Positions 21,155-45,000 of a DNA stretch of 55,780 nt are shown piece by piece. Origin of the DNA: Prorocentrum cordatum (taxonomy: Eukaryota). Both the position numbers and the translations under genes were made by a program. The DNA is taken from contig CAUYUJ010000134.1 of assembly GCA_963575745.1 (NCBI GenBank), positions 62,001-117,780 on the forward strand. Reading direction: 5' to 3'. The notes beneath the pieces are model-generated. The model was not told the origin of the DNA. It searched no databases and was given only the letters and a program-made list of their open reading frames with translations. Position 1 is the first letter of the stretch. The number at the start of each line of letters is the position of its first letter.

Positions 21155-21193
<39 letters not shown>

Positions 21194-21583: not shown

Positions 21584-21618
<35 letters not shown>

Positions 21619-21693: not shown

Positions 21694-21736
<43 letters not shown>

Positions 21737-22632: not shown

Positions 22633-23051
22633 TGTCGCTCAGGACTCCGATGCACTTGCGCCAAACAGCAGCGGTTGAACCCGAGACGAGACAACGACTG
22701 CGAGCAGCAGCGAGGGGCGAGGGAGGGAGTCTTGTGGAGGGGATGGATTGACACTGTCATGAACCTGCTCAATTACCCCTCCCCACTTCTCGCCCTCCCG
22801 ACCCCAGTTTCGACCCTGGCCATCCCGCTGCAACCGCGTCATCGGGCTCGGGCCCCATGTCGGGGTATTCGTCGCGCTCAGACTTGAACAAATGATAGGC
22901 GGTCCTGAGCGTACTTCCCCATTCGTCGCCGCCGCCCTCCAGATCCCGCGCCCCCGGCTTCCTCCAGCACGCGACGCGGACGTGCTTCGGGAGCGCGACA
23001 ACCTGGAGGATTGCAGCCACGAGGTGCGAAGTGCGCCAAGCCCGACTAGCG

Positions 23052-23138
23052 TTATGTCGGCAGGGCATCCTAGAGGGCCTCATCAGGGACCCTTTGTTTT
23101 TTTCCCCGCCAGGCTCCCGCAGGAGCATCCGCAGGCCC
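23052..23138 (+). repeat. Left terminal inverted repeat
   Basis: TTATGTCGGCAGGGCATCCTAGAGGGCC...TTTTTTCCCCGCCAGGCTCCCGCAG. Confidence 0.92.
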
Positions 23139-24045
23139 TCGGAAATTTCCCTGCAAGCCTCCCGCGGGGCACCCGCAGAGCATATGCAGGGCCTCACCGA
23201 AAAAACAAAAAGCATCCGCAAAGCCATCCGCAAAGCATCTGCAAAGCATATGCAAAAACACAAAAAAATAAGAAAAACAAGCAATCATATGTCTTGCACG
23301 CAACACGATCGTCTCAGCGTAGGAAGAAGTCCAGACTGGCGCGCCCCCGAGGCACCGACGATTGATATGCATGTTATAGGAAAGGCTAGACGAGTATATA
23401 TGTGAAGGCGCTGGGAAGCCTCATAAGGGGGCTGGCGGATATATCTTCAGAGTGCAGGCGGGGCTCCTAAGAGGGGACTCATAGGGGGCCTCATGGGGGG
23501 GTCGGCGGATGTACGGGGGCTGGGGGAATTCTTGGGGGGGCCTTACTGAGTGAATGCGCTGGGTGGCCTCATATGGGGGCTGGCGTATCTAGCTACAGAT
23601 CGCATGCTGGACTCCTGAAGGCCTAGGTTGAGAATCTGGGGGCGTCCACGGCAGGGTGTCTAGGGCAGGGTGTTCTGGGGTGCTTAATGGCTCAGGGCGG
23701 GTTCGCGATGTGTCATACGTGCCAGCGCAGAGATATAAACGGTTAGTTATCTTGACCCGAACTTTTAGTCCAAAGTTTCAGGCGGTCGGAGCCGAAATCC
23801 ATACGTGCGGTAAGTTTTGGAAAATAGTGAGACATCGGGGAGGGAGGGGATGTGACTTCAGGGAGAGGGGGGGCGGATTGAGAACCCCAGAGATGAGAAA
23901 TGATGGAGGGGGGCACAGTACATTATATATTTAAGAAGAATCAAAAGGGCAAACATAGGTAAACGAAGAGATGAGGAACATCTACCAGACAGCCAGCCTT
24001 GAAATACCAACCCTGGCAATCAACAGACAACACATCTCGTTCATG

Positions 24046-24067
24046 ACCGTAACCATTTTGGCTCAAC
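24046..24067 (+). other. Dinoflagellate spliced-leader relic upstream of the transposase
   Basis: ACCGTAACCATTTTGGCTCAAC matches DinoSL at 20/22 positions and ends 80 nt before the ATG at 24147. Confidence 0.85.
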
Positions 24068-24146
24068 TTTCGGCATTCTCCATATCATGTTCGTACCACT
24101 TGTACTCATGTACGCATACATAACAATTTTGTTCGCGTCAGCCTTT

Positions 24147-27100
24147 ATGGCAGGCGCAGGTGACTCGTGGCTTGCGGCTTTGAGCGACGTTGGCAGCGAC
24201 ACGGCCGTCGACGACGATGTGGGCGAGAGCTGGCTTTCAGCGCTGGGCGCCGTGAGCGATAAGGCTGACGCTGGGCAGGAGCTGCCGCAGCCAGATGGAG
24301 ACGACTGGTTGGCAGGTGTGGACGCCCTCTCGTGCGACGACTGCTCTGCCGACGGCGACGTGGACGGCGAGCTCGACCATGAGATGGCGTTGGTCCCCGT
24401 AGAGGTGAAGAAGGATGTCTACTGGGCATCGCACGCTTGCAGGCACGTGCCCGACAGCGACCTCGACGAATCAGCTTTCAAGATAGCCACAGAGGTGATG
24501 GACGACGACCCGCTCACAGGGCGGATCACCAGCAACGCGCGTAACCTCGACGAGAGCCGCTCGAAGTATAGGGACACGCTGAAGATCATGGCAGGGTGTG
24601 CGTTGCAGGTCTTAAAGGCGTTTGAAATGCAAACCGTCGCTGCGATTTCGATTTGTTTTTTTGGTGGGCCATCTCGGCCCCAGGCCGGGGAAAAAACACT
24701 GGAAACCAGATCGCGATGCAGCGGCGGTTTGTTTTCAGACGCCGCCGCAGGTCGAGCGCAACGTATGGAAACACGCTGAGGAGCTATTGGTTAGCTACGC
24801 TGGCTCTTCCAAGAGAGTGGAGCTTCTGTGCTACGTGGAGTACGCCAGCTATGACAGCACCGATTTTATCTTGCAGAGTACGCAAACGGTGACCGAGACG
24901 CTCGACGACGGACACTCCATCGTGGACCACGGGGCCCCTCCAGGACAAGAGCCAGATGAAGCTAACACCGTCGTTCTTGTGGAGAAAACAGTGGGCACGA
25001 AAAAGGTACTACAGATGGACACGAACGTTTTGCTTTTGCTGAAGATTGATGGTCGGTATGCGATTCTCCGTGGGAATATGCTATCGTGGCTCCAGGTGTG
25101 CGATAGGAACTCTGCTAAAAACTACAAGGCTGCTATTTCAGAATATTCGATTGGGACATCAAATGCAGCTTCGTTCCTCAGGAGGCTTCGCATTGTTTGC
25201 ACTGAGAGGTACACGGCAAATCTGAAGGCTGAGCGCCATCTATTGTCTGAGCGCGAAGGATGGGCAGTGCTACACCTTCTTTGTCGGGTACACACAGTGT
25301 CTGGATTCCACACTAAAGTTTACGACATGCACGCGGAAGATATATCGGGGCTTATTGCGACGACGCTTTCACTGAGGCTGGCTGGCCAGATGAGCTTGCT
25401 ACGAAAGGCTGCCAGGCGGATCATTAGACAGAAGTTGGTGATTGTGACAGGCGTAGCTCTGGATGCCAAGGCAGTTGCGTTCAGGAACCTGGTGATGGAT
25501 ACATTCTTGGACGCTTCTCCTCAGTGCGTGGCGCTTCGAATGCTGCTCGAACGGTGTGCGCCAGGGGATTGGAGAGATAAGGACCGTATGATGTTCGTTG
25601 CACGGCCAGGGGAGACTCGAGCTGACGTCCTTCGTCTGCTGTTCAAGGAGTTCGTGCCAGCAATCTTCCCCCACGCCCCGTACTTGTTCCCTCGCCACAG
25701 GTGGACTGGGGCAGACATCACGTTTCGCGACGTCGGCCTGCCGATGAACATCCACGGCCTCTTCGGGGCGACATACATGAGCTACCTGAACGTCGAGTAC
25801 GGCGACGAGGATCCTGGCGACTACCCAGTCGCGCAACCCGACCTGCAGCTGGTGCCGCATGAAGGGCAGCAGGCCCCGCCCGAGGATATCGAGGGCGAAG
25901 GTCCAGCTGCCGATGCGCAGCCGCCCGAGAAGGATAAGGAGGCGCCCGAACCTGGCGCGCAGAAGGCCGATCACCCACGAAAGGCCTTCGCCGAGCAGAG
26001 CAAGGCATACCGCGGCCAAGCGCGCGACTGGATTTCCACTGAGCCGTCCATCCAGGTCCTGTTCTTCAGGGCGGTTTTGGAGCCAATCAAGAAGTTCCTG
26101 GAGATGGAGTTGGAGATGGCAAGCGAGGAGTGGGAGATGAATCAGGACTGTGCCCTTCTCGCCTCAGACGGCGATGCGACGGTGTTGGGTGGGAGGCAAT
26201 GGCCTATGATGAGTGTTGCGATGCTGACGTTGGAGACCGAGTGCTTCAAGGACATTGAGAAGGTGGCGAAGTCTATGGAGCTGGACTGCCTGCCAGATGA
26301 TTGCATGACGCTCGAGAACCAGACGAAGCTGCGCAAGGACTTATCCAGAGAAGGCTGTTGCACTTATCAGTTCGGGGCCTCGATCGGAAAGCAATTCCCC
26401 TTCAGGTTGTGTTTGCTTCTTGATGATCGCGCTTTGGCTCCAGAACTCGAGGCTTCTTGCAGGCTTATTCGCGACAAGTTTAGCGATGACTTTATCGAGT
26501 ACTACAAAGATAAGCCTGGCGGGCTAACGAGCGACCAGGCTTTGCACGAGTTGAGCCTCATCGTGATGGCCAGCAAGACGGCGACGGTGAAATTGGAGAC
26601 TCAGAACGCGCAGATCAGAAGGCAGGTGGAGGCTACCTCGCTGCAGTCCGCCAGGCCCGAGCTGCCCACCATCAGCGGCAGGTTTGTTCTGAGGAAGGCT
26701 TCTACGAGAGAGGCTCGGATCCTGAAGCCAGCGGGGGTCTTCGAGCCCAAGGAGCGGAAGCGCGGAGATCAAAAACCAGACGAACAAGGCCGGCCTACAA
26801 AGAGGGGTGGCGGAGGAGCTTGGAGAGCATTCATCGCTGCTCGCGCCAGAGTTGTAGGGAGGGTTGTGCTGCAAGCGGCAGCGGCCGCATACCGAGCGCT
26901 ATCCCGAGAAGAGTTTGAAGTTTACCAAAGAGCAGGCTCAATCGGGACATCTTTGCATCGAGAGGGCAAGAAGTCTTTCGGCACCGTCTCGAGGGAGCTC
27001 AACAAGTTGCTGGGCGAGCAGCAGGCGAAGGAGAGGGCGGAGTCCATCTTGAACGCGAGTCGCATGCCAGGGCGCCCTGCGAGCATCGACATGGTCGCTA

Positions 27101-28883
27101 TCCCAGTCGGCGACGTCGCGACGAACATCGGCACGCTCAGAGCAGATCACTACCTCTGCAGGCGCCTCAAGAAGCGCGCAGTCCACGACAGGGCCATGAG
27201 CTTATCCAAATGGAGGGCTACCAAGGGCATGCAGCACGTGAACGATTTCATTGCCGCGCTCCCTCTAATGGCTCCATTGGTAAACGGCCTCGTTGCTCGC
27301 CCCCACTTTGGTGGCGCATACGTCCTGGAGTATTTCTGCCCGTCAGGAAGATTATCCCCAGGATGGTGGGCTTGCTGGCCAAGTCCGAGAACGCCAAGAT
27401 CAGGGAGGTGGTCACCAGCTATTACGACAAGCTGCACGATGAGAAGAGAGATGCTTCCCAGCAGGACTTCGACGAGACGCCTAAGAAAGCTCATCAGAAA
27501 CCAAGTTGCATCGACGCAGGCGTGTGCTTGTGTGGCCCGAAGGGGGACCTCGTCTGGAAGTTCAAAAAATGGGTTGATAGTGGCATCAAGTTATACTGCA
27601 AATCTACGTCTATGAGGGATGCATTGTCGTCTGGCGATATCGTCGTTAAGATCCATCACGTGCCAGAGGATTCGAGTGGGGATGCCGCCAGCGCTGGAGA
27701 CGTTGCAGGTGATGAGGCTGGCCCGATGGGCGAATTTGTGACTTACCTTCATATCGGCCTGATGTATTTCTCGCCGCACAGGCCAACTTATCGCCAGTGC
27801 GTACCAGCGGATGTCGGTGTGCTCGGTGACGGCGCTATCGTGCTGGATTGCCTGGACGACTACCTGACGAACTTCGAGGTCGCCGACAACTTGTATGCGT
27901 ACTTTTCGAAGCCAAGCACTTGGAGTTTGTCTGTTATGCGGGTGCAATCCTCGTCCAGGCCCGTATCGCCCATACGGCCGTCACAGCTGGTGGTTGGCAA
28001 TATCGAAGATGACCGAGACTTTACGCGACGTTGGCCAGCGCCCAGGCGCAAAAAACGGAAGCGACCTGATGACAATGGGTGGTTGGACGACCTTGACGAG
28101 TTGGGCGAGGATGGCGCCGACGGCGAGGACGAGGGCGAGGACGGCGACGGCGACGGTGACCCCGAGATGGTCGAGCCCGAGCCCGAGAATGACATTCATG
28201 GCGAGGGAGGGTCTATCAAGTCTCTTTCCTACGACGGCTGGGAGAGCCCATCATCGGTTGCAAACACTGACGAGTTGTTCGGGAGTGACCACGGTGGTGA
28301 GGCCATTCTGTCAGATGAGGTCGACGACGTATCAGTTGACAGCGGACACGGTGACGACCCTGGTGGTGATGATCCTGGTGGTGATGATCCTGGTGGCGCC
28401 CCTGATCCAGGCGGCGGTGGTGATGGTCCTGGTGGCGACGCTGATCCAGGCGGATGCGGCGGAGGCCCTCCTCCACCCCCACCTCCGCCGCCAGGCGGCG
28501 GTGGTGGTCCTCGCGACCCAGCAGACATCACATTCGTCACGCCCTACGGCATCATCCGATACTACGCGAAGAAGCTAGAGTTAGTTGCACATTGCCCCAG
28601 GCACGGGGGCAAATGCAGATTGACCAGGACCGTGCGAGGATCAACTGCCCATTGGAGGGCTGGTCAGGGCAGGCCGCTCGGCGCCCTCATGCTGTGGCTG
28701 AAGAGGGGCACGGGCGACGACTTCGCCACCCTCCACGACCATGTCCATTGCTGCGCTCTGCCCTTTGGCGACAGGCAGGCCGCCAGGGAGGAGCTCAGGG
28801 CCGTGCCAGGCAGCGGCGCGCTCTTCGCCGTTGAGCGCGACCGCAGGCCAGACGAGCCCGACGAGCCCGAGTCTGTTCCCTGA
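24147..28883 (+). CDS. Putative hAT-like DDE transposase (~1530 aa after one probable intron and one 1-bp frameshift), with an HMG-box-like segment and C-terminal Cys/His clusters
   Basis: Joins ORFs 24087-24779, 24622-27615 and 27210-28883. Motifs in hAT order: YASYD (24853), CTE (25204, usually D), CRVH (25282), RW (PRHRWTG), long helical insert, LETQNAQIRR (26596). Lies inside a TIR/TSD-bounded element. Confidence 0.7.
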
Positions 28884-28924
28884 GAACTGCTCTGCTTGCG
28901 CAGCGTCTGGCTGCGCAGCTGGAA

Positions 28925-28932
28925 GAAAAAAA

Positions 28933-29013
<81 letters not shown>
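28925..29013 (+). repeat. Poly(A) tract ~40 nt after the transposase stop codon
   Basis: ~88 A with one interruption. Confidence 0.9.
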
Positions 29014-29014
<1 letters not shown>

Positions 29015-29334
29015 CGCATCTAACCATCCTCCTCATCATCATCAACATGTCCACTACCATCCAAGAGGAGGGATGAGGATGGGGACGACGAGGTGCACGA
29101 GGAGCAGGAGCAGGGACAGGAGCAGGAGCAGGGGGTGAGGAGGTGCACGATGAGGAGGGGGGCCAGGAGGAGATCGGAGGAGGGGGAGGGGGACGAGGAG
29201 GGGGGATGAGGAGGAGGAGGAGGACCAGGATAGGGGGAATGAGGATCAGGCAAATGGGGCATGAGCAGGAGGGGGGAGGCGGAGGAGGGGGAGGATGACG
29301 AGGACGAGGGAATGGAGGAGGAGGAGGCGGCACA

Positions 29335-29990
29335 AATAATGCCAAATATAAGCATTCTTAAGCTCCAAGAGAGATTCCAACAATGCCCCAAGATGGCTCC
29401 AAGAGAGGCCCTAGATAGGCTCCAATGGGGGCTCCAAGAGGTCTCCACGAGAAACTCCACTAAGGCCCCAGGAGGGCCCCATCATGCCAAATACAAGCAC
29501 ACCAGGGGCCCCAATTTGGAACCAAGGGGGGTCCCAATGATGCCCCAATATGGCTCAAACATACGCCCAGGAGGTGCCCCAACAGAGGCTCCAATATGGC
29601 TCCAATAGGGGCTCCAATAAGGCACCAACGGGGGTCACTAGGGCACAACATCGGCTCCAATAGAGGCTCCAATAATGCCCCAAGATGGCTCCAGGTGAGG
29701 CCCAGGAGAGGCCCCACTAGAGGCTCAAAGATGGCCCAAGAGAGGGCCCAATAAGGCCCCATGAGGCTCCAATCAGGCCCAGTATAGGCACAATAGAGGC
29801 TCCAATCTGGCATGGCTCCAACAGAGGCCCAAATAAGGTCCCAAGATGGCCCCAAGAGACTCCCAGGAGAGGCCCAATTGAGGCTCCAAGATGGCTCCAG
29901 GAGAGATTCCAGTAAGGCCAAATTGGGGAGGGCACTAAGGCCCAATATCGGTCCCAAGAGAGGCTCCATATGCCCTGGAGGGATGTCCCT
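29335..29990. repeat. Degenerate GGCTCCAA/GGCCCCAA minisatellite
   Basis: Read directly from the sequence. Confidence 0.8.
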
Positions 29991-30844
29991 GCAAGGGGAC
30001 GGTGGAGTTTCTGAGCCCCCAAACCCGCGTCCGTGCAGGAGCAGAACCGAAAAACTGTTGTCATGCTTTTCCTCTCTGCGAAGTACACAGGCACATCAGG
30101 GAAATGTTGATTTGTGTTTTTCCCTCGTGCAAACGGACCACAGCGTGCAGGTAAAAAAAACAAAGGGAACGGGGAAAAAAAACACCTTCAGCCGGAAATC
30201 CTGAAATGAAAATTCCCCTCGCTGGAACCCACGAACGCACGAGGGGCAAACATGCAATAGAAAATTTCCCTCTCTGTAACTGACGAAAGTACACGGGGGG
30301 ATCTGATTTCCTCACCAGTAACTGATGTTGGTACTTAAATAGAGAAAATTTCCCTGGGGGACCTCTTGACGGCCGCTGGGCTCTTCGGGGACTCGGGCCC
30401 CTTGGGGCCTGCGCTGGCCTCTTGGGACCTCTTGGGGGCATCTTGGGCCTCCCCGCTGACCTCTTGGGCCCCCCCGCTGGCCTCTTGGAACCTTTTGGCT
30501 TTTTGGGGCCTCTTGGGAAAAATGCAATCTTGGGGCCGGTTTATTTCTTGGGGTGAGTTTCGGGCGATGTAGGGCTGGGCTGGTAGATCGTATGCGTTTT
30601 CAAAGGAGGGGGCCCTACTGGGGCCCTTGGCGATTCCCCATGGACGTTCCTGGAGCGTTTCGGGGCTTTCGGGGAAGTCCCGTGTGCCAGAAAATGCCCG
30701 GGACAGCCGGCTATTTTGAAAGATTTTTGGGGTTTGCGTATTCGATCATGTTAAGGTCCTTGTAAGGGGTTTTACGAGGGCCCTCTCAAACGTCACCTCG
30801 TTGGAGCATACATAACGCTTGAAAATTATGGGGCGATCTTCGGA

Positions 30845-31660
30845 TTTGGGGTTAGGGGTTATCTTAGGATTCGGAGTTAGAGGTTTTCTTAGGATCAGGG
30901 TTAGGGGTAGGGTTAGGAACCCTTAGGGTTAGGGCTAGGGGCCCTTAGTGTTAGTGGTTATCTTAGGATTAGGGGTTATCTTAGGACCAGAGGTTATGGT
31001 TATCTTAGGATTAGAGTTAGGGGTCGGATTATGGTTAGGATTATGGTTAGGGGTTAGGATTAGGGTTAGGGCTTATCTTAGGGTTCGGTATAGGGTTATA
31101 TTAGGATGATGTCACGACTCCTTCTTCACCAGGGGGGCGTAACAAAAAGGGGTGGGGGGGGTCCTTAGTGTTAGGGGTTATCTTAGGATTACGGTTAGGG
31201 GTAGGGTTAAAGGCCCTTAGGGTAAAAAGGTAGGGGTTGGGGTAGGGTTAGAGGTAGGGTTAGGATTAGGATGAGTGTTAGGGTTAGGGTTAGGGGTAGG
31301 AGTAGGGGTCGGGTTGGGGATCGGGTTAGGGGCCCTTCGGGTTAGGGGCCCTTAGGGTTAGAGTTAAGTTTGTACCAGGGGCGGGGGTGGTATATCTTGG
31401 AGCCCTTAAGGTTCGAGTTTATACTAGGGGTTGGGTTAGAATGCTCTAGGTTGGATGTTATCATAGGGTTAGGGGTTGGGAATTGTTTAAGGGCTAGGAG
31501 TATATTAACGTTGAGGTTCAGGGTTCTATCAGGGGCAGACTTATGGGGTTATCTTGAGGATAGGATTCGGGTTAGGGTTATGGTTAGGGGTGTATTGAGG
31601 TTAGGGTTAGGATTAGGGTTGGGGGTCGCATATCTTGGGGCCTTCAGGATTAGGTTTATC
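30845..31660 (+). repeat. Degenerate TTAGGG/TTAGGA telomere-like tract
   Basis: Many GGGTTAGGG and GGATTAGGG units. Confidence 0.8.
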
Positions 31661-32060
31661 TATGAGTTACAAGGGGACATTATCTACAACAAAAAATATA
31701 TCCTGAGGGCCGCCTGGGCTTTAGATCGTTCCGGAATAATGACAATATTATGGGCAAGGGGCCCCTGATAAGTTCGAGCAGGGGTTGACGCGTGCATCGG
31801 CAATTTCGTTGGCTTTATAGGACCCATGAGAGGGGCAGCCCAACATGTGTGATAATGTTTTCTGGTTGCTCGGGTGCCCAGACGGAGCGGCTTCCGTGAT
31901 TCAGCGAGGTAGCTGAGAGGTAGCTCGGACATCGGTGCTTCTTCGCCGTTGCATAGCATGTTATATCTAGGATCTAGGGCGAGCTAACGAGGTAGCTATG
32001 AGAAGCGGTGCTTTGATCTGCGGCCCCCCTCGTCGTCGTCCCTCCCCCCCGATATCCATG

Positions 32061-32085
32061 TACGTAACCATTTTTGCGGATCAAG
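32061..32085 (+). other. Degenerate spliced-leader-like motif upstream of ORF2
   Basis: TACGTAACCATTTTTGCGGATCAAG aligns to DinoSL with indels and ends 73 nt before the ATG at 32158. Confidence 0.55.
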
Positions 32086-32157
32086 TTTATAGTTTCAGGT
32101 GAACTCGCCACACTGTGACATGCTAGTGTACTGAGCGAGTGCACAGAGCAGCCCCTG

Positions 32158-35100
32158 ATGGCTGCGACTGCAGCGGGCAGCGTTGCGAGGGCACCGCGTC
32201 GCGGCGCCAAGTGTGCGCGCTCGTTCTGCGAGCTGCAGGTGGCGCTGGCCACGTGCGAGAAGTTCGGAGACCTCTTCTTGTGCAGGGAGTGCGGCGAGTT
32301 CGGCGACCAGTCTGGATTCGAGTTGAAAGCGTTGGCATCGATGAAGCCCAAGTCGCCAGCAAAGTGGAAGGAAAGGAAGGCGCAGAAGGAGGAGCGGGCC
32401 AAGGGCAAGGCTGTCGCTGAGGACGACAGGGAGTTCCCCCAGGAGGAGGTCTACGAGGAGACGATTCAGGATAGCTCCTTGTCAGAGGAGTTCACCTTCC
32501 AGTCGCGCGACGGCTTTAAGGAGGAGCACGGCTGCCTGCCAGACCAGGCGAAGGTGATGACGCTGCGCGTGACGAACTCTAAAGGCGAGGAGTCTTTCGG
32601 CGTGGCGCTGGCCACGGAGACGGATGCACCTCCGAAGCTGACGGTGACCACGACGAGGAGGCTCGTCAGGAGGACGCCCATCCTCGTGAAGGGCCGCAGC
32701 TTCTACAAAGCTCAGGCGAGCAACCTCTTTGAGAACATGTCGGCTGATCGGTCGCGCGCGCACGGACAGAAGTTCGGGAACAAGTACCAGCCGAAGGCCA
32801 AGAAGTTCAGCGCCTACAAGAAGGATGCGATCAAGCAGCTCGTGAAGAAGAACGTCGAGAGGCCAAAGGGGTTGCGTCGCATGGTGCGCGATGGTGATGT
32901 TCCTGATGACTCTGGCTCGGACGCGGGGGGCGCGTCGTCCGAGGCTGAGGCCGAGGCCGAGCAGGAGGCAGCTGCAGGCGCAGCACAGCAGCAAGTTCCT
33001 CCAGCGACCGACGCTGGGCAGGCTTCGGCGTCGGCTGGGCCCCAGCACTCAGACGCGCCAGAGACGCCCAGGGCACCGAGGACCTCAGCAGCGGCGGACA
33101 GCTCCAGGACCAAGGAGAAGCGCACGTCCGAGAACGCGAGCCCGACCCTCGCGTTGGCCCCGAGCTCGAAGAAGGCAAAGCCAGGCACGAACGTCGCGCC
33201 GTCGATCGCCGATACGGCGGCCACGGGCGTGGACGGCGAGGGTGGCCGCCTTAAGCCGCCCGAGCACTGGCACGAGACCATCACCCCGTCGAGAGTGTTC
33301 GCGGGCGCCCCCCTGAAGAGGCACGTGGGCTGGGCAAGGGATTGCGTCAAGCGCATCGCTGGCCAGGGCGAGTCGGTGAAGGCCAACCACTTGACCGAAC
33401 ACATCGACGCAATCGATCTTTGCATGGAGCTGATGACTGAGCTAGCCAATGAGAAAGTGACCTTCGTTAGCCTTAGCACCATCTTGGGGAAACTTGTGAC
33501 GAAGAAGGTGGACTTCGATTCGAACATCAAGAGCAAGCTTTTGGGGAAGAGATTGTTCTCATCGATTCTGGCTTTCTCGAGTGGAGATACCGACGACGCC
33601 TGCATCAAGGAGATCGTGGATACCGTCATGCCTTTCACGGTTGAGAAGCTGGACGCGAGCCAGGAGGTGACCTGCGATGACGACGGCGACGAGAAGATGG
33701 CCCCAGACCCCGAGGAGTTCGACCCCATGAAGGTTAGCATGGCGACTATCGACGTCTCGAGTGACTCCAGGATGACGTTGCTCCTGAGCGTGCTCCTGAA
33801 GGAGATCGTCCCAGCGGTGATGCAGGTGGATCAGGCTGGCCAGGTAGCAGCGTCGCGCCTGTGCGCTGCCATGCTGAGTCGGTTTGAGGCAGGCGTCGCA
33901 GAGATGGAGGAGATCCCCTCCGCCGCGAGCGACACGTTGGCCGTGCTTCGCGTCATGTGCGCCCTCAGCGACAGCACTGCCGACATGGACTTCGATGCCT
34001 TGGACGAGTTCTTCCTCCAGCAGGCCAAGAAGACCAAGGGCGCCCTCGCGGACCTGGGAGTGATGATTCGCTTGAATGAGCACTGGAAGGAGATCTACGA
34101 GGAGCTGCAGACCACCATCCAGGATGCCAGGGAGTGGATGCCGAAGATCTTCAAGAGCGCTGCCCAGGTCAAGGCACTCAAGACCAGCGAGGCTCCCATC
34201 AGGCTTCCCAGCGCTATCATCGACGAAGCTTTCGACATCCTGAAGTCCTGCCGAACGATCCTGAGGGCCGGCTCCACCCACACTTTGGAGATCGAGATCG
34301 CTGGGGTCCACGGCGTGATCCAGTCGAAGATGTTCGACAAGAGCGGCGTGGTCAATGGCGGGGACGGCTACAGCAAGGCCGAGCTGCTCGCAGCGGATAA
34401 GATGTTCAAGGACAGCCTGGACCTCAAGTGCTGGGTCGAGGAGTTCGGCATCAGCGCGAGGGAGCACATCGGCGCCGTGATCGAGAAGGCAGGAGCGAAG
34501 GAGATCATGAACGGGCTGAAGGAGATGATGATGGGCGGCGCCAAGGACGAGGCGGGCAACATCGACATTGAGAAAGTTCGTGCCGTCAAAGTCGCGCTGC
34601 ACAACCTCACCGAGAGCTCACTCGATGTCGAGGGCAAGGAAGCGGTCACGTCCTTCTGCAGCCGCGTGTGGGACGCTATCAAGGACGCGGTGAACGCGAG
34701 CAATGGCGAGATTGCAGGTGTCATGAAAGACATCGCATTGGTGGCGGGCGACGGCATCACCGACATCTCCAAGGCGTTCCACGCTGCAGGCGAGACGAAG
34801 TTCAGCATTGCAGCGCACGTCTCGATGACCAGCGGCAGCGAGGACGGCTCTGGAGTGACGGACGAGGAGCCCATGAAAAGTACGAAGACCATCATCCTGA
34901 AAGAGATCGCGCTCGACCAGGTCACGCAGAGCATCCCCGAGCGCGAGCAGAAGGAGGTCCTGGTCGCTGCCCACACGAGCGCGAAGAACTACATCCAGAC
35001 CGTCGGAGACCAGGCGATGGGGATATCCAAGGCCGAGCTCGACAACAGGGTGAACCACGCTGCGAAGTGGGCCAAGGGCGGTGCTGACGGTGAATCGTGG

Positions 35101-35484
35101 TGGGGGTCAGCGAACGACGCGAACGACCTCAGCGAGCTGCTGCCCATGGCGAAGGAGACCGTGTGCAAGCACGCGTCGGAGAGCTTCAACGTCGAGAAGA
35201 CCAAGATCCAGGAGCTGCTCAAGTCGCACACGGAGGTGGCCAGCGTGTTCACTCGCGTGCCGAGCCCCGACTCCACCAAGACGGCGAACGACGTGATGAA
35301 GGCTCTGGCGCAGAGCCACATCGAGGGCATGGTGGCCGCGCTGTTCACCGCCAAGTACAGCAAAGAGGAGCTCAAGAAGAAGGTGTTCGCGCTCAAGAGG
35401 CTCGCGACGAAAGAGGGTGCGAAGTGGGACCAGATGCCGTCGGCGCTCGTGGAGCGCGCAGTGAAGGCCGCGAAGCTGCAGTAA
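32158..35484 (+). CDS. Intact intronless 1108-aa protein of unknown function (transposon ORF2/cargo)
   Basis: Uninterrupted 3.3-kb ORF with strong G/C third-position bias. N-terminal C-x4-C-x8-C-x8-C-x2-C, low-complexity linker and long helical-looking C-terminal part. No family recognised. Confidence 0.85.
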   Translation: MAATAAGSVARAPRRGAKCARSFCELQVALATCEKFGDLFLCRECGEFGDQSGFELKALASMKPKSPAKWKERKAQKEERAKGKAVAEDDREFPQEEVYEETIQDSSLSEEFTFQSRDGFKEEHGCLPDQAKVMTLRVTNSKGEESFGVALATETDAPPKLTVTTTRRLVRRTPILVKGRSFYKAQASNLFENMSADRSRAHGQKFGNKYQPKAKKFSAYKKDAIKQLVKKNVERPKGLRRMVRDGDVPDDSGSDAGGASSEAEAEAEQEAAAGAAQQQVPPATDAGQASASAGPQHSDAPETPRAPRTSAAADSSRTKEKRTSENASPTLALAPSSKKAKPGTNVAPSIADTAATGVDGEGGRLKPPEHWHETITPSRVFAGAPLKRHVGWARDCVKRIAGQGESVKANHLTEHIDAIDLCMELMTELANEKVTFVSLSTILGKLVTKKVDFDSNIKSKLLGKRLFSSILAFSSGDTDDACIKEIVDTVMPFTVEKLDASQEVTCDDDGDEKMAPDPEEFDPMKVSMATIDVSSDSRMTLLLSVLLKEIVPAVMQVDQAGQVAASRLCAAMLSRFEAGVAEMEEIPSAASDTLAVLRVMCALSDSTADMDFDALDEFFLQQAKKTKGALADLGVMIRLNEHWKEIYEELQTTIQDAREWMPKIFKSAAQVKALKTSEAPIRLPSAIIDEAFDILKSCRTILRAGSTHTLEIEIAGVHGVIQSKMFDKSGVVNGGDGYSKAELLAADKMFKDSLDLKCWVEEFGISAREHIGAVIEKAGAKEIMNGLKEMMMGGAKDEAGNIDIEKVRAVKVALHNLTESSLDVEGKEAVTSFCSRVWDAIKDAVNASNGEIAGVMKDIALVAGDGITDISKAFHAAGETKFSIAAHVSMTSGSEDGSGVTDEEPMKSTKTIILKEIALDQVTQSIPEREQKEVLVAAHTSAKNYIQTVGDQAMGISKAELDNRVNHAAKWAKGGADGESWWGSANDANDLSELLPMAKETVCKHASESFNVEKTKIQELLKSHTEVASVFTRVPSPDSTKTANDVMKALAQSHIEGMVAALFTAKYSKEELKKKVFALKRLATKEGAKWDQMPSALVERAVKAAKLQ

Positions 35485-35554
35485 TGTGGTCGACAGCTGG
35501 GATGCTGCGACGTGGGGTGGGTTAAAAAGAAATGGAAAAGAATACTCAGGTACT

Positions 35555-35582
35555 CGTCGTCGTCGTCGTCCTCCCCACCCTT

Positions 35583-35629
<47 letters not shown>

Positions 35630-35674
35630 TGCCGTCGCCGTCGCCGTCGCCGTCGCCGTTGCCGTCGCCGCCGC

Positions 35675-35722
<48 letters not shown>

Positions 35723-35825
35723 TTTCGTAGTCGTCGTCGATCGTCGATCGTCGATCGCCGATCGTCGTCGTCGTCGGCGATCGTCGACCGTCGGTCGTCG
35801 ATCGTCGATCGTCGTCGTCGTCCTC
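35555..35825. repeat. (GTC/GCC)n and (GATCGTC)n microsatellites
   Basis: Read directly from the sequence. Confidence 0.9.
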
Positions 35826-36209
35826 GGGGCGGGCGCGGCGTCCGCCTGTCATCAGCTTCGGCCACTTCCCAGGACAGCCCGCCAGCCCGCGGCCCGAGGG
35901 AGGATGAGGCATTGAGGGAGGAGGAGGGGGGAGGGAACGGGCGGGGTAGGGAGGTGGACGGCAGGCGGGAGGGAACGCACAGGAAGGGAAAACACCAGGA
36001 AAAAGGGGGGGTGACGGCGCGGGGGGGCGGTAGGACGAGGGGGAGTGGATGAATGCGAAGACGGATGAATGATAAGGCATGGGAGCGGACAAGTTGGATA
36101 GCCGCGAGGGGCGCGAGGATGCGGTTGGGCAAGGAGGAGGCGAAAGGCGAGGATGAGGTGGGTAATGTGGAGGCGCATGGAGGGTGTAACAGGAGGGCTC
36201 CAAGATATG

Positions 36210-36495
36210 TTAAGCCTAGCTCTAACCCCCACCCCAATTACAAGATAGCCGCTAAAGCTAACGCTAAAACGACCTCTAAGATAGCACATAACCCTAACCC
36301 TGAGATAACCCCATAACCCAAACCATCATATAACCTCTAACCTGCGGTGGCCCCGAACCCCTCGCCCTTAGATGACCCCTAACCCAAAGTACTCTAACAT
36401 TAACCTCAAGACAACTCCTAACCCTGAGGGCCCAAGGTACACCAACCCTAACACCAACATATCTTTGACCCCTAACCCTAAAGGCCCCTAACCCA
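36210..36495 (-). repeat. Degenerate CCCTAA tract (reverse complement of the 30845-31660 tract type)
   Basis: AACCCTAACCC and ACCCCTAACCC units. Confidence 0.7.
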
Positions 36496-36978
36496 GAGGG
36501 CATTATGGGGGGGAGGATGATAAGGAGGTGGAGGAGGAGGAGAAGGATGAAGAGAGGGAGGAGGAGAAGGAGGGGGAAGAAAAGGGGATAAGGAGGAGGA
36601 GGGGTAGGATGTGCTGGAGGATGGCGAGGAGGAGGAAGAAAGGGGACGGGGGGAGGAGGAGAAGGAGGAGGATGAGGAGGAGGAGGCCGTTGTTTGTGGA
36701 TACAAACACGGATGCGCCGTATGGCGCGAACAACTCGGGTATAGTTGCCCGTGATAGTGGTAGCGGAACTGTAGTGCGACCCCCCATGATTTGTTGCGCC
36801 AGCAACGGCTGCATATTGCTAAGCAGCCTTCTTGGTAGCGGATCTTGAGATTGCGCGGCGTGCCGTGGTACATTCGGCCTGTGTTATTAATGTCATGTCG
36901 GGCGTGCGTGCGCATGAATGAAACTATTGTGTTGGCGCGTGAACCGCTCGCTATGGTGCGCCCAAGCACACGGAGATA

Positions 36979-36981
<3 letters not shown>

Positions 36982-37072
<91 letters not shown>
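36982..37072 (+). repeat. Poly(A) tract near the right TIR
   Basis: ~90 A. Confidence 0.9.
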
Positions 37073-37073
<1 letters not shown>

Positions 37074-37188
37074 GGCGCGGAGAAGGAAAAAGTGCATATG
37101 GAAAAAAGAAAGGATTTGAGGAAAAAAACATGAACCCTGACATAGCTCTTGCGGATGCTCTGCGGATGCTCTGCGGGTGCTTTCGGGT

Positions 37189-37276
37189 GGGCCTGCGGAT
37201 GCCTCTGCGGGAGCCTGGCGGGGAAAAAAACAAAAGGGTTCCCGATGTGGCCCTGTAGGATGATCTGCCGACATAA
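37189..37276 (-). repeat. Right terminal inverted repeat
   Basis: Ends ...GGATGATCTGCCGACATAA, immediately followed by the TSD GACTAGCG. Confidence 0.92.
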
Positions 37277-38849
37277 GACTAGCGCAACGCAGGAACGACA
37301 CAGACACCCGCATGACTGCATCGTGCACGGCGGCAATCGTACCCGAGGCGAGGTATGTACGCCGCGAGCACAGGGTCATATTGGGCCACCTTGGGCCAAA
37401 TAACTCTCGCGTGGACGTGGTGGCTCGCGCCTCGCTCGCCCATCTCGCGGTCTCCTTCACCTTGCCCCCCTCGGTATCACCCCCCTCCGTGGCCCTCCTG
37501 CTGGGGCCCAGGACTGGGATCCGTTTGAAACGCTCGTGTTTCCACGCGCGGAACTCGGGGTGGGCGTGGAGCTCGTCGAGCCCTGAGGGGAGCCTCAATA
37601 GGCACGCGCAATACAAGGCCGGCTTATCGCCGCAAACCTTGGGCGCGCCTTCCTGACGGACGTCGCCCTCTCGCAACAGGGGCACGCAATAAGCGACGGG
37701 AGGCCGCTTCACCCTGCAATCGAGCACCTCATCGCCAAAGCAACGGCCCCCCCAACGGCTCCTTGCGGCGACGCCACCCAGCGCCCACGAGGTCCAGACA
37801 CAAGGCAAGCTTAGACTGCTTCTGCGCCATGGCGCCCTGCAGAGCAGCGGCTCGAGCGACAGACACCCCCATCCCCTCGCCGAGAGTCGCGGCAAACGCC
37901 CAATGAACAGAAGACAAGCAGACCCGCAATTCAGGCCCCCAAAATTCACCGAAGCGGTTTACTTCGAGGACGCCTAGCCGCTCGTGGAGGGGGATGCCGT
38001 TGAGCTGGAAGCCTGCATTTACTAGCTCTTCAAAACTCATCGGGGCGCCCGCGCCCGCGTGGGCGCCCCAGCTGGCCGACTCCAACGCTGGGGGATCCAA
38101 GCCCACCTCCTCTGGGGGACAGCGGAGGCCCCGCGGGGGCCGAAGGGCGGGAGCGGGCGGAGAGCGGAAGGAGGAGAAGTGGGGACTGGAGGCCCCTGGT
38201 CGACATCCGCCACGTTGCCAGCTGCATTAGAGAAGGCGCTGGCCAGGGAATCGGGCAATCTCGCAAGCGAGCTGGTCGATTGTCTCTCTGGCCATCGAAC
38301 GAGCAGCGGAAGTGAGTGGGCGTTGCCGGCGCGGATCAAGTCCACGAGACTGGGATGAACCAAATGTGGACACAAGAAGATGCCGCCATCACCATTCGCC
38401 TCTGATCCCAGGAACGCCAGGCCGCACTCTCCCCCAATGTAATCTAGGCGCGCCGGGCGCAAGACCTTCCTGCGCCGCCGCTGGGCCGAGATGATTGCGA
38501 AGAAAACGTGGGGGTCTTGGGCCCCCCCGACATCGAGGGCCTCACCCGACGGATCGCAAAGAATCTGAACAACATCCACAAGGTCAGGGATCGGGGGCGC
38601 GAGAGCCGCCCCGTCTTGGCCAGCACGTGGATCACCTCCCCCCTGGACGTAGCCCATCAACTCCCGGCGGGCGACGGCCGCGGGCGCCGGGCCGCGCCTC
38701 CGCCTGAGAGCTTAGCCAGTACACCATCCCATTCCACTTCCCACCATATCCTGATCATCCTGCCCCCTCTGCTCCTTCTTCCCCACATCCTGAGTGGGGT
38801 TCTTGTTCTCCCAGAACATCCCCTCCTTCTACCCCCGCCTCCCGCCCCC

Positions 38850-39795
38850 CCTTTCGCGCCCCTCCCACCCCTCCACGGAGGCCCCGCCTGAGCGAGGAGG
38901 GCATCGGAAACCACTACTATCACAAGGTTTTCGCGCCCCACCCACCCCTCCAGGGAGGCCCCGCCTGAGCGAGGAGGGCATCGGAAACCCATACTATTTA
39001 CATTGTTTGGTGCCCTTCCCACCTCTCCAGGGAGGCCCCGCCTGAGCGAGGAGGGCATCGGAAACCCATGATATTTACACGGTGTCGCGCCATTCCCACC
39101 CCTCCAGGGAGGCCCCGCCTGAGCGTGGAGGTCATCGAAAACCCATGCTATTTACATGGTTTCGCGCCCCTCCCACCCCTCCAGGGAGGCCCTGTCTGAG
39201 CGAGGAGGGCATCGGAAACCCATACTATTTACCTGGTTTCGCGCCCCTCCCACCCCTCCAGGGAGGCCCCGTCTGAGCGAGGAGGGCATCGGAAACCCGT
39301 ACTATTTACATGGTTTCGCGCCCCTCCCACCCCTCCAGGGAGGCCCCGCCTGAGCGAGGAGGGCATCGGAAACCAATATTTGTCACATGGTTTCGCGCTC
39401 CCCCCACCCCTCCAGGGAGGCCCCGCCTGAGCGAGGAGGGTATCGGAAACCAATACGATTTACATGGTTTCGCGCTCCTCCCACCCCTCCAGGGAGGCCC
39501 CGCCTGAGCGAGGAGGGTATCGGAAACCCATATGAGTTACATTGTTTCGCGCCCCTCCCACACCTCCAGGGAGGCCCCGCCTGAGCGAGGAGGGCATCGG
39601 AAACCAATACAATTTACATGGTGTCGCGCCATTCCCACCTCTCCAGGGAGGCCCCGCCTGAGCGAGGAGGGCATCGGAAACCCATGCTATTTACATGGTT
39701 TCGCGCCCCTCCCACCCCTCCGGGGAGGCCCCGTCTGAGCGAGGAGGGCATTGGAAATCCACGCTACTTAAATGGTTTCGCGCCTCTCCCACTGA
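38850..39795. repeat. 77-bp tandem repeat x~12 (two further decayed copies at ~40490-40660)
   Basis: GGAGGCCCCGCCTGAGCGAGGAGGGCATCGGAAACC recurs at 77-bp spacing. Confidence 0.95.
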
Positions 39796-39899
39796 CACGG
39801 GCGAGGAGGAGGGGGGAACATTACCTATCCATCTCACGTCCTACTTCTCCCACTGAGAAGGGCGAGGAGGAGGGGGAGTTCTGCGATGAGGAAGGCTTC

Positions 39900-40485
39900 A
39901 TCATGATGACGGTGATGACGATGGTTATGCTGTTCACGATGACGATGACGATAGCGATCATGGCGATGGACGGTGACGATGGCGATAACGGCGATGATGA
40001 TGATGATGATGACGATGATGATGACGATGATGATGATGATGGCGAAGACGATGATGACAACGACGACGACGACGACGACGACGATGATGATGCGGATGCT
40101 GGTGATGCTGACGATGCTGCTGCTGATGCTGACGTTGCTTGTGTTGTTGATGATGATGACAACGATGATGTTGATGATGATGACGTCCACGATGATGCGG
40201 ACGAGTATGATGCCAAGGACGATGATGGTGATGGTGATGTCGATGATGATGATGGCGATGATGGCGAAGACGGTGATGATGATGACGATAACGATGCCGA
40301 TGATGATGATGCTGATGATGATGATGAGGATGATGACGATGGTTATGATGATGCCGATGATGCTGACGATAATGATGATGATGGTGATGCTGATGGTACT
40401 GCTGATGATGACGATGATGCTGATGATGACGACGACGACGATGCTGGTGATGATGATGATGATGATGCCGAGGATGAGGAGGACG
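39900..40485. repeat. (GAT/GAC)n microsatellite
   Basis: Read directly from the sequence. Confidence 0.95.
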
Positions 40486-40829
40486 CGGAGGAGGCCCCCC
40501 ACTCCTCCCCTCCACTCCTCCAGAGAGGCCGCCCTCGAACGAGGAGGGTCGCGGAAAGCATACTCTTCACCATGTTTCGTAGCCCGCCCCCTTCCAGCGG
40601 GGCCCCGCCAGAGCGAGGAGGGTATCAAGAAACCGTACTATTTACAAGGCTTCGTTTCCTGAGCACCTGTCCTTCCTCCTCCTTTCTTTCGTCTGTCCTT
40701 TCGTGCGTACTTACTCGTTTGATGAGCTTCTCCTTCGCGCTGATGTTGTCGTACCCCATGGGTCCCACGAAACCGTTAATATTTTTATGTGGGGAACTCC
40801 GTTAGCTTAACTTTGCCCCACCTCCCCCG

Positions 40830-42039: not shown

Positions 42040-45000
42040 CAACTAGCTCTCCAGCGCCCGGAATTACTCTTAAGCTTCCAGCAATAACTTGCTAAGGGAA
42101 GCTCTACGAGTTACTGGGCGCCGGCGGTAAGCCGTCAACCTTTCTTACCGCCGGGGGACTCGTAGAGCTTCCTGACAATATATAATGTCGAAAAAAATTG
42201 CAGAGAACGAATAGTTTTTCAGCCCAAGCGATTTCAGACCTCTCGATGCAACAGCCGAACGCCCCCGATGCTTCTGGATTGTCTTCTGTACGAGCTCTGT
42301 AGCTCTCCTACAGCCCGAGTTACGTGCGTAAATCGACAGCAACCCTCAAGATGACTGGAACAATACGAATAGTTTGGCAAACCTAGCTTGAGTATCAGAC
42401 AAGTTCAGGCCTCTGAATGCGATAGGCAGACGCGTCTGATGTCTCCGAATCGATTCCTGTGATTACCAGCCCTGCAGCCCCCGTGCAGCCCGAGTTAAGT
42501 GCAGAAAACGGACAGCATCTCAGGATGACTCGAACAATACGAATAGTTTCGCGGACCTAGCTCGGGCAGCAGACCGAGTTCCGAGCTCTGGATTCGACAG
42601 GCGGACGCGCCTGATGTCTCTGAATCGATTCCTGTGACTACCAGCACTGTAGCCCCCCACAACCCAAGTTAAGTAGAAAACCCAAGCAGCTCTCAAGATG
42701 ACTCGAACAATACAAACGGTTTCGCGACTCTAGAGAGGGCAGCAGACCGAGGCCAGAGCTCTGGATTCAACAGACAAACGCGACTGATGACTCTGAATCG
42801 TTTTCTGTAATTCTCAGCTCTGTAGCTGTGATATAGCTCGAGTTAAGTACAGAAAACCGAGAGCGTCTGTCAAGATGACTCGAATGATACGAATAGATTT
42901 GCGGGCCTAGCTCGGCTAGCAGACCGAGTTCAGACCTCTGGATGGAGAAGACGAACGCGCCTGATCATTCTGAATCGATGACGTGTGCTGACCAGCTCTG
43001 TAGCTGTCCTGTATCTCGAGTGAAGTCCAATATACCGACAGCGCGTATCAAGATGACTCGAAACAGCCGATCCCGCCTGGACGCTTTTTGGCAGTAAAAG
43101 GTACCCGATCGAGCTGAGATCAAGATGGCGAGCGCAAATAAGATCGAATATTACGGAAAAAATACTAGAGCTCCAACGAATGGTTGAATTTCGAGAACAA
43201 AATTTTCAACCGACCAAAAGTCATCAAAACGTCCGTCGAGATTTTCCTTGCCAACTAGCTCTCCAGCGCCCCAGAATTACTGGCGCCGGCTGTGAACCGT
43301 CAACCTGGTCACCGCGGGGAACCTCGTAGAGCTCATTTCACGCGTGAGAAAGCTCAGAGTCGAAAGAGAGAGCTTCTGGAGGCATTTCTCGAAAAATTGA
43401 ACATTGATTTCTTTCATGTCGAAATAAAGTTGGTTGCTCCAAGTGTTTCAATAGTAAAAGTGCGCCTACAGAGCTCATATTAAGACGCAGAGCCTCTCAT
43501 AACCTTTTACAGGTGCGAAAAATCTGCTTTCTCAAATAAATGGTCAAATATTTCGGAAATATTCGCAAAACCACCCAAAAGTTGTTACTTTGTCCTTTCT
43601 GGTCGGGTCGACCAACTGGGCGCCGGCGGTGAACCGTCAACCTTTCTTACCGCCGGGAGACTCGTAGAGCTTCCTGACAGCATTTATATCGAAAATAATT
43701 GCCGAGAACAAATAGTTTTTCAGCCCAAGCGATTTCAGACCTCTCGATGCAACAGCCAAACGCTTCCGATGCTTCTGGATTGTCTTCTGCACAAGCTCTG
43801 TAGCTCTCCTAGAGCCCGAGTTACGTGCGTAAATCGACGGCACCTCTCAAGATGACTCCAACAAAACAAATAGTTGGGCAAAACCAGCTCGAGATCAGAC
43901 CGAGTTCAGACCTCTGAATGCGACAGGCGGACGCGTCTGATGTCTCCGAATTGATTCCTGTGATTACCAGCCCTGCAGCCCCCCTACAGCCCGAGTTAAG
44001 TGGGAAACGGACAGTGCCTCTCAGGATGACTCGAACAATACGAACAGTTTCGCGGACCGAGTTCGGGCAGCAGACCCAGTTCCGCTCTGGATTCGACAGG
44101 CGGACTCGCCTGATGTCTTGAATTCGATTCCTCTGACCACCAGCGCTCTAGCCCCATAGAGCCCGATTGAAGTGCATAAACGGACAGCACCTCTCAAGAT
44201 GACTCGAATAATACGAACAGTTTCGCGATTCTAGATCGGGCAGCCAAAGGGTTTCAGAGCTCTGCATTGAACAGAGAAACGCGACTGATCATTCTGAATC
44301 GGTTTCTGTAAGTATCAGCTTTGTAGCTAGCCTAGATAGAGCTCGAGTTAAGTACAGAAAGCCGAGAGCGCCTGTGAAGATGACTCGAGTTCAGACCTCC
44401 GAATGTGACAGGCGGACGCGTCTGATGTCTCGGAATCGGTTCCTGTGATTACCAGCCCTGCAGCCCCCCTACAGCCCGAGTTAAGAGTCGAAAACCGACA
44501 GAATCTCAGGATGACTCGAACAATACGACTAGTTTCGCGGACCTAGTTCGGGCAGCAGACCGAGTTCCGAGCTCTGGATTCGACAGGCGGACGCGCCTGA
44601 TGTCTCTGAATCGATTCCTGTGACTACCAGCACTGTAGCCCCCCTACAGCCCGAGTTGAGTACAGAAAACCGACAGCATCTCTCAAGATGACTCGAAAAA
44701 TATTAACAGTTTCGCGATTCTAGATCGGGCAGCGGACCGAGTTCAGAGCTCTGGATTCAACAGAGAAACGCGACTGATGATCCTGAGTCGTTTCCTGTAA
44801 GTATCATCTCCCTAGCTGTCCTATAGCGCGAGTTAAGTATAGAAAACCGAGAGTGTCTGTCAAGATGAGTCGAATAATACGAATAGGTTTGCGGACCTAG
44901 CTAGCAGACCGAGTTCAGACCTCTAGATGCAACAGACGAACGCGCCTGATCATTCTGAATCGATAAGGTGTGCTTACCAGCTCTGTAGCTGTCCTGTATC

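Follow-up and report, generated by a model that had tools for sequence, protein, structure and literature searches.

Several multi-gene DNA transposons are known to carry a second gene, such as TnpA of En/Spm (CACTA), the Myb-like protein of PIF/Harbinger and mudrB of MuDR. DNA transposons are also known to capture genes, as seen in Pack-MULEs, in Helitron captures and in transduplication. In dinoflagellates, whose genomes are huge and have some half of their genes "dark", mRNAs are said to be recycled into retrogenes that keep a relic of the spliced leader (DinoSL), as Slamovits and Keeling reportedly described in 2008, and a set of conserved "dark" genes was reportedly described by Stephens et al. 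in 2018. Relic-leader retrogenes and rampant retroposition are established in this group (PMC11453091, PMC5585692), and 52.2% of the gene models of Prorocentrum cordatum count among the "dark" ones (PMC10666404). Here we describe an intact open reading frame (ORF) of 1108 codons, called ORF2, which sits inside a 14.2-kb DNA element bounded by terminal inverted repeats (TIRs). Both lie in a stretch of 55,780 nucleotides (nt) from the red-tide alga P. cordatum (assembly GCA_963575745.1, contig CAUYUJ010000134.1, positions 62,001 to 117,780 of the forward strand); this whole stretch is the window in what follows, and all coordinates are counted from its first letter. Our tentative reading, to which we give a probability of about 0.45, is that ORF2 is a captured or passenger gene of a host-like, multicopy "dark" family that travels on a TIR transposon.

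The frame at 32158-35484 on the + strand is open over all 1108 codons and intact, as an earlier note on this DNA had described it; it is intronless and colinear in a single frame with its full-length relatives. Its start codon is backed by two relatives, of 62% and 51% identity, that begin at the same position, and its GC content at codon positions 1, 2 and 3 is 0.58, 0.44 and 0.85. Because homologues are found at E = 0 and GC at the third position (GC3) is 0.85 against 0.44 at position 2, ORF2 is not a chance frame; it is a real protein-coding gene of P. cordatum. It is also, where real genes are concerned, the only long undisrupted ORF of the window, just as the note had put it, for the neighbouring gene changes frame twice, and a 934-amino-acid (aa) "ORF" at 19874-22678 is an artefact. 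The latter was rejected as a gene since it crosses an assembly gap (a run of N at 20005-20104) and the ~800 nt of (ATC)n-like repeats that come after it.

The same note had seen in ORF2 an orphan of no recognised family, a view that did not survive the searches. A word-indexed protein search returned three proteins: P0002 (99% identity, a partial 767-aa model from P. cordatum), P0003 (62%, 1034 aa, also from P. cordatum) and P0004 (51%, 1107 aa, on a 3.7-kb contig). A full-library phmmer search, in which each representative stands for a cluster at 50% identity, gave 159 representatives at E <= 1e-3, with 75 at <= 1e-10 and 14 at <= 1e-30, and the family thus comprises at least 159 such clusters. 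Full-length relatives of 1091-1157 aa (P0006, P0157, P0163) are colinear with ORF2 from end to end at 20-31% identity, and six full-length family proteins align with each other over their whole length. By sequence similarity, then, ORF2 is a member of a large uncharacterised protein family. Many of the matches are partial and cover only residues ~40-410 or ~410-1107; since several of these "half" proteins finish in frameshifted tails (P0013, P0016), most of the half-length members are read as fragments or decayed copies and not as proof of split genes. Three of the 20 clusters that were looked up have names, all of them P. cordatum; some records are labelled Polarella glacialis, and a EukProt transcriptome labelled Pyramimonas is the source of one member of 116 aa. 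Judged by names, the family is known only from dinoflagellate material, and names do not fix its taxonomic range. A literature search turned up no description of the ORF2 family, of this type of transposon or of multi-gene TIR elements in dinoflagellates, which does not prove that there is none.

ORF2 lies within a TIR-bounded element, probably a DNA transposon, at 23046-37282 on the + strand, as cargo or as accessory, and both genes of this element are on the + strand inside the inverted pair. The left TIR (23046-23191, + strand) starts with CTAG and carries 11-12-nt GCATCCGCAGAG-like subrepeats that continue to ~23250; the right TIR (37135-37282, - strand) ends in CTAG at 37279-37282 and has an 11-nt GCTCTGCGGAT period called by Tandem Repeats Finder at 37145-37210. 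When 23046-23191 is aligned with 37282-37135, 124 of 151 positions are identical (pairwise E 7e-32), both arms begin at CTAG and the GCATCCGCAGAG-like 11-12-mers are common to both. In a dust-filtered self-BLAST of the window, 23052-23191 and 37135-37276 form the only inverted pair that brackets ORF2. The terminal motif of the element is CGTTATGTCGGCAG... Two other candidates for the TIRs were rejected: the "inverted repeats" at 20.1-20.9 kb and 39.9-40.5 kb, the longest in the window, are low-complexity (ATC)n against (GAT)n, and the TTAGGG-like arrays at 30836-31624 and 36240-36500 have arms of only 30-54 nt at 70-90%. These degenerate, telomere-like arrays flank ORF2 in opposite orientation inside the element.

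Read along the + strand, the element contains a leader relic, the candidate transposase gene ORF1, a tract of 88 A, 3 kb of low-complexity DNA, a decayed relic core, ORF2, a run of repeats, a 290-nt stretch and a tract of 91 A. The repeats downstream of ORF2 are (TCG)n, CCCTAA-like and (GGA)n; the (TCG)n microsatellite is at 35554-35826 (+ strand), just after an A-rich stub at 35524-35545. The pure 91-nt poly(A) tract (36982-37072, + strand) stops 12 nt short of the right subterminal region. The 290-nt stretch at 36690-36981 that ends in this tract is unique, with no ORF or leader relic found for it; this could be where a third unit of retro origin in the element has its 3' end.

To see whether the unit occurs elsewhere is a matter of its copies, and for these the contigs of four public runs were compared with window positions 31500-37300. 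A 3707-nt contig of run X1 covers 31901-35544 with 29 differences and stops at 35544, and further X1 contigs cover 31500-31930 and 35967-36506. Because X1 also covers 31500-31930, the copied unit is larger than ORF2. The right end is reached by a 571-nt X1 contig, which matches 36696-36965 and 37084-37276, has a shorter A tract between them (~40 nt in place of 91) and then continues in 60 letters unlike the window. The divergence falls at 37276/37277, a few bases inside the end of the right repeat, and the terminal element letters of X1, reverse-complemented, read CGTTATG, as at the left terminus in the window. In short, the unit has a second copy, or is present at a different site in another strain, and it is at the repeat that the common sequence stops. 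At least three variants of ORF2 at ~99% identity exist, since P0002 is identical to neither the window nor X1; residue 202, for example, is Arg in P0002, His in the window and Tyr in X1. The earlier note had suggested an accessory or a captured gene, and this is the right frame, because ORF2 is bracketed by TIRs together with a candidate transposase gene and a second near-identical copy is found. The position of ORF2 inside true TIRs, beside a candidate transposase and in a copied unit, bears out that much of the suggestion; the accessory role in particular is a hypothesis.

Within ORF2, X1 and the window show 23 listed differences, of which 9 are synonymous and 14 are replacements (pN/pS 0.45). 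At eight of the 14 replacements (C21R, W80R, D119G, V150A, G533V, L718H, F871S and Y1024H) both P0003 and P0004 side with X1, and because the two agree in this way, these eight are placed on the branch of the window copy; C21R, W80R, L718H and F871S sit at conserved columns. The remaining six comprise two that are backed by P0003 alone, one that is split and three that are uninformative. Six of the ten window-branch replacements are T>C on the coding strand, at sites that include 32218, 32395, 32606, 34769, 34925 and 35227, and this is consistent with GC-biased drift. From these substitutions, the window copy of ORF2 seems to be drifting under relaxed constraint. Its intactness, moreover, is weak evidence of selection: the density of lesions in ORF1, two in 4.7 kb, leads one to expect ~1.4 lesions in 3.3 kb, so that the probability of finding none is ~0.24.

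The spliced-leader relics tell of the origin of both genes. Before ORF1, at 24047-24067 on the + strand, there is a DinoSL relic with 2 mismatches to the 21-nt DinoSL consensus; 0.01 such matches are expected by chance. Before ORF2, a decayed relic at 32061-32085 (+ strand) lies ~73 nt ahead of the ATG and contains the exact core CGTAACCATTTT at 32063-32074. The 12-mer CGTARCCATTTT is found three times in the window and not once in 100 shuffles. The 3' part of the ORF2 relic is decayed, with A>G at 32084 in X1, X3 and X4 and at 32083 in X1 only, and only the core is shared. Both relics of the element are on the coding strand, 73-100 nt before the respective ATG, and a poly(A) tract of 88 nt (28926-29013, + strand) begins ~42 nt after the stop of ORF1. 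Since both coding units are intronless and each has a leader relic before it, we infer that both passed through mature mRNA before becoming DNA. For ORF2, the A-rich stub at 35524-35545, which stands before the (TCG)n repeat, may be the remnant of a poly(A) tail. The tract of 91 A at 36982 was considered as the tail of ORF2 and rejected, for it lies 1.5 kb past the stop, while the contig of P0004 leaves ~340 nt for untranslated regions. As side observations, a third leader-like stretch, CCGTAGCCATTTTG, is found at 5949-5962, immediately ahead of (GAG)n and inside a 252-aa ORF at 5564-6322, and a T(23)A(60) homopolymer tract lies at 49985-50065.

The neighbour, ORF1 (24148-28883, + strand), is a damaged copy of a family of ~1530-1630 aa and is the candidate transposase. 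In tblastn comparisons with P0169, P0171 and P0179 it is read in frames 3, 1 and 3 at 24168-24632, 24748-27372 and 27339-28880, which amounts to two frame changes, a plain frameshift near 27340-27370 and a 115-nt unaligned stretch at 24632-24748. Its relatives have 1529-1631 aa at 27-38% identity, and there are shorter ones as well. At 25195-25206 (residues ~61-64 of P0005) a family-invariant CTDG reads CTER in the window, and because of this change the window copy is probably inactive even apart from the two frame changes. The only leads to its nature are a row for an HMG box (E 0.14), a hAT-derived family to which the Atlas gives a score of 0.75, and a "CTDG...C-R-V-H" arrangement that may resemble the "D...CxxH" block of hAT and MULE transposases. 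ORF1 is probably the transposase of this element family, a putative assignment that falls short of proof. The ORF1 and ORF2 families have no profile similarity to each other (hhalign probability 0.1), and GC3 is 0.85 in ORF2 against 0.67-0.78 in ORF1.

A more distant member of the ORF1 family is found on L001, a 5858-nt locus in a JGI metagenome. At its positions 797-5401 it carries an intact 1535-aa homologue of ORF1, 37% identical over 798 aa, with the leader relic CCGTAGCCATTTGTGCTCAA ~5 nt before the ATG of the homologue. About 700 nt further upstream there is a sequence like the right terminus of the window element, with a Smith-Waterman score of 32 against 18.5+-2.2 for shuffled sequences (0 of 300 shuffles reaching it) and against <= 25 for the right arm compared with the rest of L001 as a control; this terminus is followed by GGGACTCCGCGG subrepeats. 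An open frame at the 3' end of L001 was considered as an ORF2 and rejected, as it is not ORF2-like. Setting L001 772-5404 beside window 24047-29013, the leader relic is present in both, and the A(88) that comes after the window gene has no counterpart in L001. Because the relic also stands before this 37%-identical homologue, the ORF1 relic is probably old and was inherited with the element, which would make it no mark of a fresh retrocopy; this, too, is short of proof.

The anatomy of the ORF2 protein agrees well with the outline in the earlier note, which had listed an N-terminal cluster of five Cys, a basic region, a disordered linker and ~700 aa of helical-looking sequence. Its first 45 residues hold C19, C24, C33, C42 and C45, and a Lys/Arg-rich stretch covers residues 62-95. 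The basic N-module (32158-32907, + strand; residues 1-250, isoelectric point (pI) 9.5) consists in the model of a zinc knuckle, helices at 43-85 and an alpha/beta domain at ~98-245. It is joined by a linker (32908-33252, + strand; residues 251-365) that is acidic (pI 4.6), rich in Ser, Ala and Pro and predicted to be disordered, with an AlphaFold2 predicted local distance difference test score (pLDDT) below 50 at 249-262 and 266-362; a patch in it, SSKKAKP, resembles a nuclear localisation signal. The acidic C-module (33253-35481, + strand; residues 366-1108, pI 5.25) is predicted to be all-helical, and the AlphaFold2 model of residues 385-1108 has 26 helices at a mean pLDDT of 86.8. Within the zinc-knuckle-like Cys cluster (32212-32292, + strand; residues 19-45), C21, C24, C42 and C45 are at least 90% conserved in a 33-sequence family alignment, where they form a CxxC...CxxC pair with the pattern CxxC-x17-CxxC. 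This set of four ligands is incomplete in the window copy, which has Arg at 21, whereas X1 and P0002 have Cys21 (the X1 codon at 32218 is TGC); C19 might act as a substitute ligand. Going by its architecture, the N-module is probably a basic, zinc-dependent nucleic-acid-binding head, and judged from composition and architecture alone the whole protein would most likely combine such a head, nuclear in location, with a large acidic protein-binding scaffold.

There have been many attempts to place the two modules by sequence profile and by fold, and neither module matches a recognisable fold among the searches made. Pfam gave nothing at the curated cut-off in ORF2, in 48 relatives or in the family alignment A3, the rows below threshold being AMH_N at E 0.085 and Hemerythrin at 0.0085, and profiles of both modules against PDB sequences found only designed helical bundles and low-complexity rows. 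For the model of the C-module, Foldseek against the PDB had a best E of 4.5e-3 with a template modelling score (TM) <= 0.18, and a structure search of BFVD a best E of 6.4e-3; VIA-align wide reached Z 9.9 (root-mean-square deviation 9.1 A, 190 residues aligned) with spectrin-like and CID-like bundles, which is inside the noise range of helical models. For the model of the N-module, the best E with Foldseek against the PDB was 1.3, and VIA-align wide reached Z 8.2, with 57 residues aligned at a root-mean-square deviation of 1.8 A, all of them in the last helical hairpin. In the N-module fold searches, the VIA search of the PDB included, nothing rose above noise: the hairpin at 352-425 filled the lists and the alpha/beta domain at 98-245 was barely covered. 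The ESM Atlas had no usable match to ORF2. Scans of IMG/VR with the alignments A3 and A5, both pattern-limited, found no relatives, and in the JGI metagenomes A3 found none and A5 one locus, the L001 described above.

The relatives of ORF2 in the host genome bear on how it came to be in the element. Six consecutive gene models of P. cordatum, CAK0858265-70, all belong to the ORF2 family, fall into one cluster at >= 90% identity and sit on one 312-kb contig. We prefer to see ORF2 as a passenger because family members form this tandem array with no annotated ORF1 beside it, and on balance rate this slightly above a dedicated accessory factor. ORF2 would then be an mRNA-derived cargo gene carried by the 14.2-kb transposon, captured through retroposition or cDNA recombination into the element, and the element, now non-autonomous, would have been copied recently to give the at least three ~99% variants. 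By accession adjacency, a crude proxy, none of nine annotated ORF2-family accessions of P. cordatum, six of them those of the array, adjoins any of the four ORF1-family accessions, which leans, if indirectly, against obligate linkage. The annotation of the species has no close ORF1 homologue of >= 476 aa, near the 62% paralogue P0003 or elsewhere, and the difference in GC3 and the lack of profile similarity between ORF1 and ORF2 count on the side of a passenger too. It should be pointed out that this case is indirect and that a good deal weighs against it. The ORF1 of the window shares only 24% identity with the four annotated members of its family, and transposon genes are often masked before annotation, which weakens the accession test. 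Some features of the ORF2 family point to a transposon-like one: it is seen mostly in unannotated assemblies, many of its matches are fragments with frameshifted tails, and one distant cluster of it occupies 13.7-14.5-kb contigs, close to the element in length. The element itself has its weak sides, too: ORF1 has no match in Pfam or among PDB sequences; its ends show no target-site duplication longer than CTAG, a palindrome that could itself be repeat sequence; and a copy with another flank is seen at the right end only, through one X1 contig. In L001 the left arm of the window scores 24 against 18.3+-2.0 (8 of 300 shuffles reaching it), which is the subrepeat only and not significant, and this locus shows no right repeat and ends 450 nt past ORF1, silent on a second gene. 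As for the passage of ORF2 through mRNA, the stub at 35524-35545 is all there is after the stop, and no clear poly(A) tail was found.

Several of these points can be turned around to make ORF2 the element's own accessory protein, the integral second gene of a two-gene family, whose N-module would bind the 11-12-nt subterminal repeats and whose C-module would recruit or bridge ORF1, by analogy with TnpA of En/Spm or the Myb-like protein of Harbinger. ORF2 is enclosed by the repeats, shares its strand with ORF1 and, unlike the damaged ORF1, is intact; the subterminal motifs, repeated in both arms and present in the different form GGGACTCCGCGG in L001, would need a binder, and a basic N-module with a conserved CxxC...CxxC pair could be one. 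The footprints of both families in the databases are similar, with many unannotated copies, decayed copies are numerous in unannotated assemblies, both families occur in the same contaminated EukProt transcriptome, and the 13.7-14.5-kb contigs of the distant cluster fit as well. We nevertheless consider this possible but rather unlikely, for no linked pair of ORF1 and ORF2 is seen outside the window locus, the six tandem members have no annotated ORF1 between them, the accessions of the two families are not adjacent, and the window copy has lost the zinc ligand C21 and changed other conserved residues. GC3 differs between the two genes, and ORF2 shows no similarity to a known accessory protein, with no Myb/SANT-type domain found by Pfam in ORF2 and 48 relatives; the analogy that the earlier note drew with the second ORFs of CACTA, Harbinger and MuDR likewise found no similarity to those proteins in Pfam. 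A bolder version, which we hold to be doubtful, is that ORF1 and ORF2 together mark a superfamily of two-gene DNA transposons in dinoflagellates that has yet to be described. ORF2 would be its sequence-specific end-binding and scaffolding subunit, of a new fold; the genes would be expressed as mRNAs with a spliced-leader cap and from time to time be rewritten out of the cDNAs made from them, and the members of the tandem array would be domesticated derivatives. Such rewriting would explain why relics and A tracts are found inside a cut-and-paste element. A quite improbable account dispenses with the mobile unit: ORF2 would be a spliced-leader-tagged host retrogene in repeat-rich DNA, and the TIRs unrelated copies of a small repeat. 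Dinoflagellate retrogenes are known by just such a leader relic and absence of introns (PMC11453091, PMC5585692), the 14.2-kb unit has no clear duplication at its flanks, its arms are no more than 82% alike, and the region is rich in low-complexity DNA and other A tracts. However, X1 shares 31500-31930 upstream of the relic and the sequence downstream as far as the repeat end, where it diverges, the ORF1 homologue of L001 stands behind a similar terminus, and ORF2 is without the poly(A) tail and the duplication expected of a fresh retrocopy. That ORF2 belongs to a virus, or something virus-like, that has become endogenised we regard as very improbable indeed; the protein is large, unannotated and multicopy, and the weak top rows from BFVD are large helical tegument proteins of herpesviruses, but these have E >= 6.4e-3 and TM <= 0.16, the two pattern-limited scans of IMG/VR found no relative, and the element has no viral hallmark genes.

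The remainder of the window is rich in repeats of other kinds. A tandem array with a 77-nt unit at 38775-39844 (at least 11 copies at ~86-89% identity) continues into an "ORF" at 39618-40805 that is Asp-rich and made of (GAT/GAC)n, and arrays of a ~177-nt satellite occupy several blocks within 42380-55740, among them an inverted block, 45647-46092 against 47761-48206, with 90% complementarity.

The locus shows a route by which a "dark" family can spread, in that a DNA transposon carries along, and copies, a 3.3-kb gene that derives from mRNA and is still intact. If ORF2 is a passenger, as we tentatively prefer, it would be a clean example of whole-gene capture. If ORF2 were instead an obligate partner of ORF1, the element would be a new type of multi-gene transposon, in which trans-splicing is linked to the biology of DNA transposons. 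Either way, part of the algal "dark proteome" may be the cargo of mobile elements. The locus also provides a confidently modelled helical domain of 740 aa that lacks any recognisable relative, along with a family of candidate transposases whose element ends are conserved.

Set beside the systems with which we began, the locus shares some features with each of them. As in the relic-DinoSL retrogenes, a relic stands on the coding strand a short way ahead of the ATG, the genes are intronless, and the neighbouring ORF1 is followed by poly(A); unlike them, the relic-headed genes sit here inside a copied TIR DNA element, the ORF1 relic is common to the L001 homologue and hence probably old, and ORF2 is without a clear poly(A). 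With TnpA, the Harbinger Myb-like protein and mudrB, ORF2 has in common that it is a second large gene beside a candidate transposase, with short subterminal repeats as possible binding sites and a basic N-terminal region of putative zinc-binding character, but there is no similarity in sequence, domain or fold, and the ORF2 family is also found in a tandem array without an annotated transposase. The "dark" genes of dinoflagellates are, like ORF2, unannotated, multicopy, partly tandem and without a Pfam domain, whereas this copy is transposon-borne and names leave the breadth of its family unfixed. As in the captures by Pack-MULEs and Helitrons, a host-like gene sits between transposon ends and is amplified with them; what sets it apart is that the gene is no fragment, being a full-length, intact, mRNA-derived gene of 3.3 kb.

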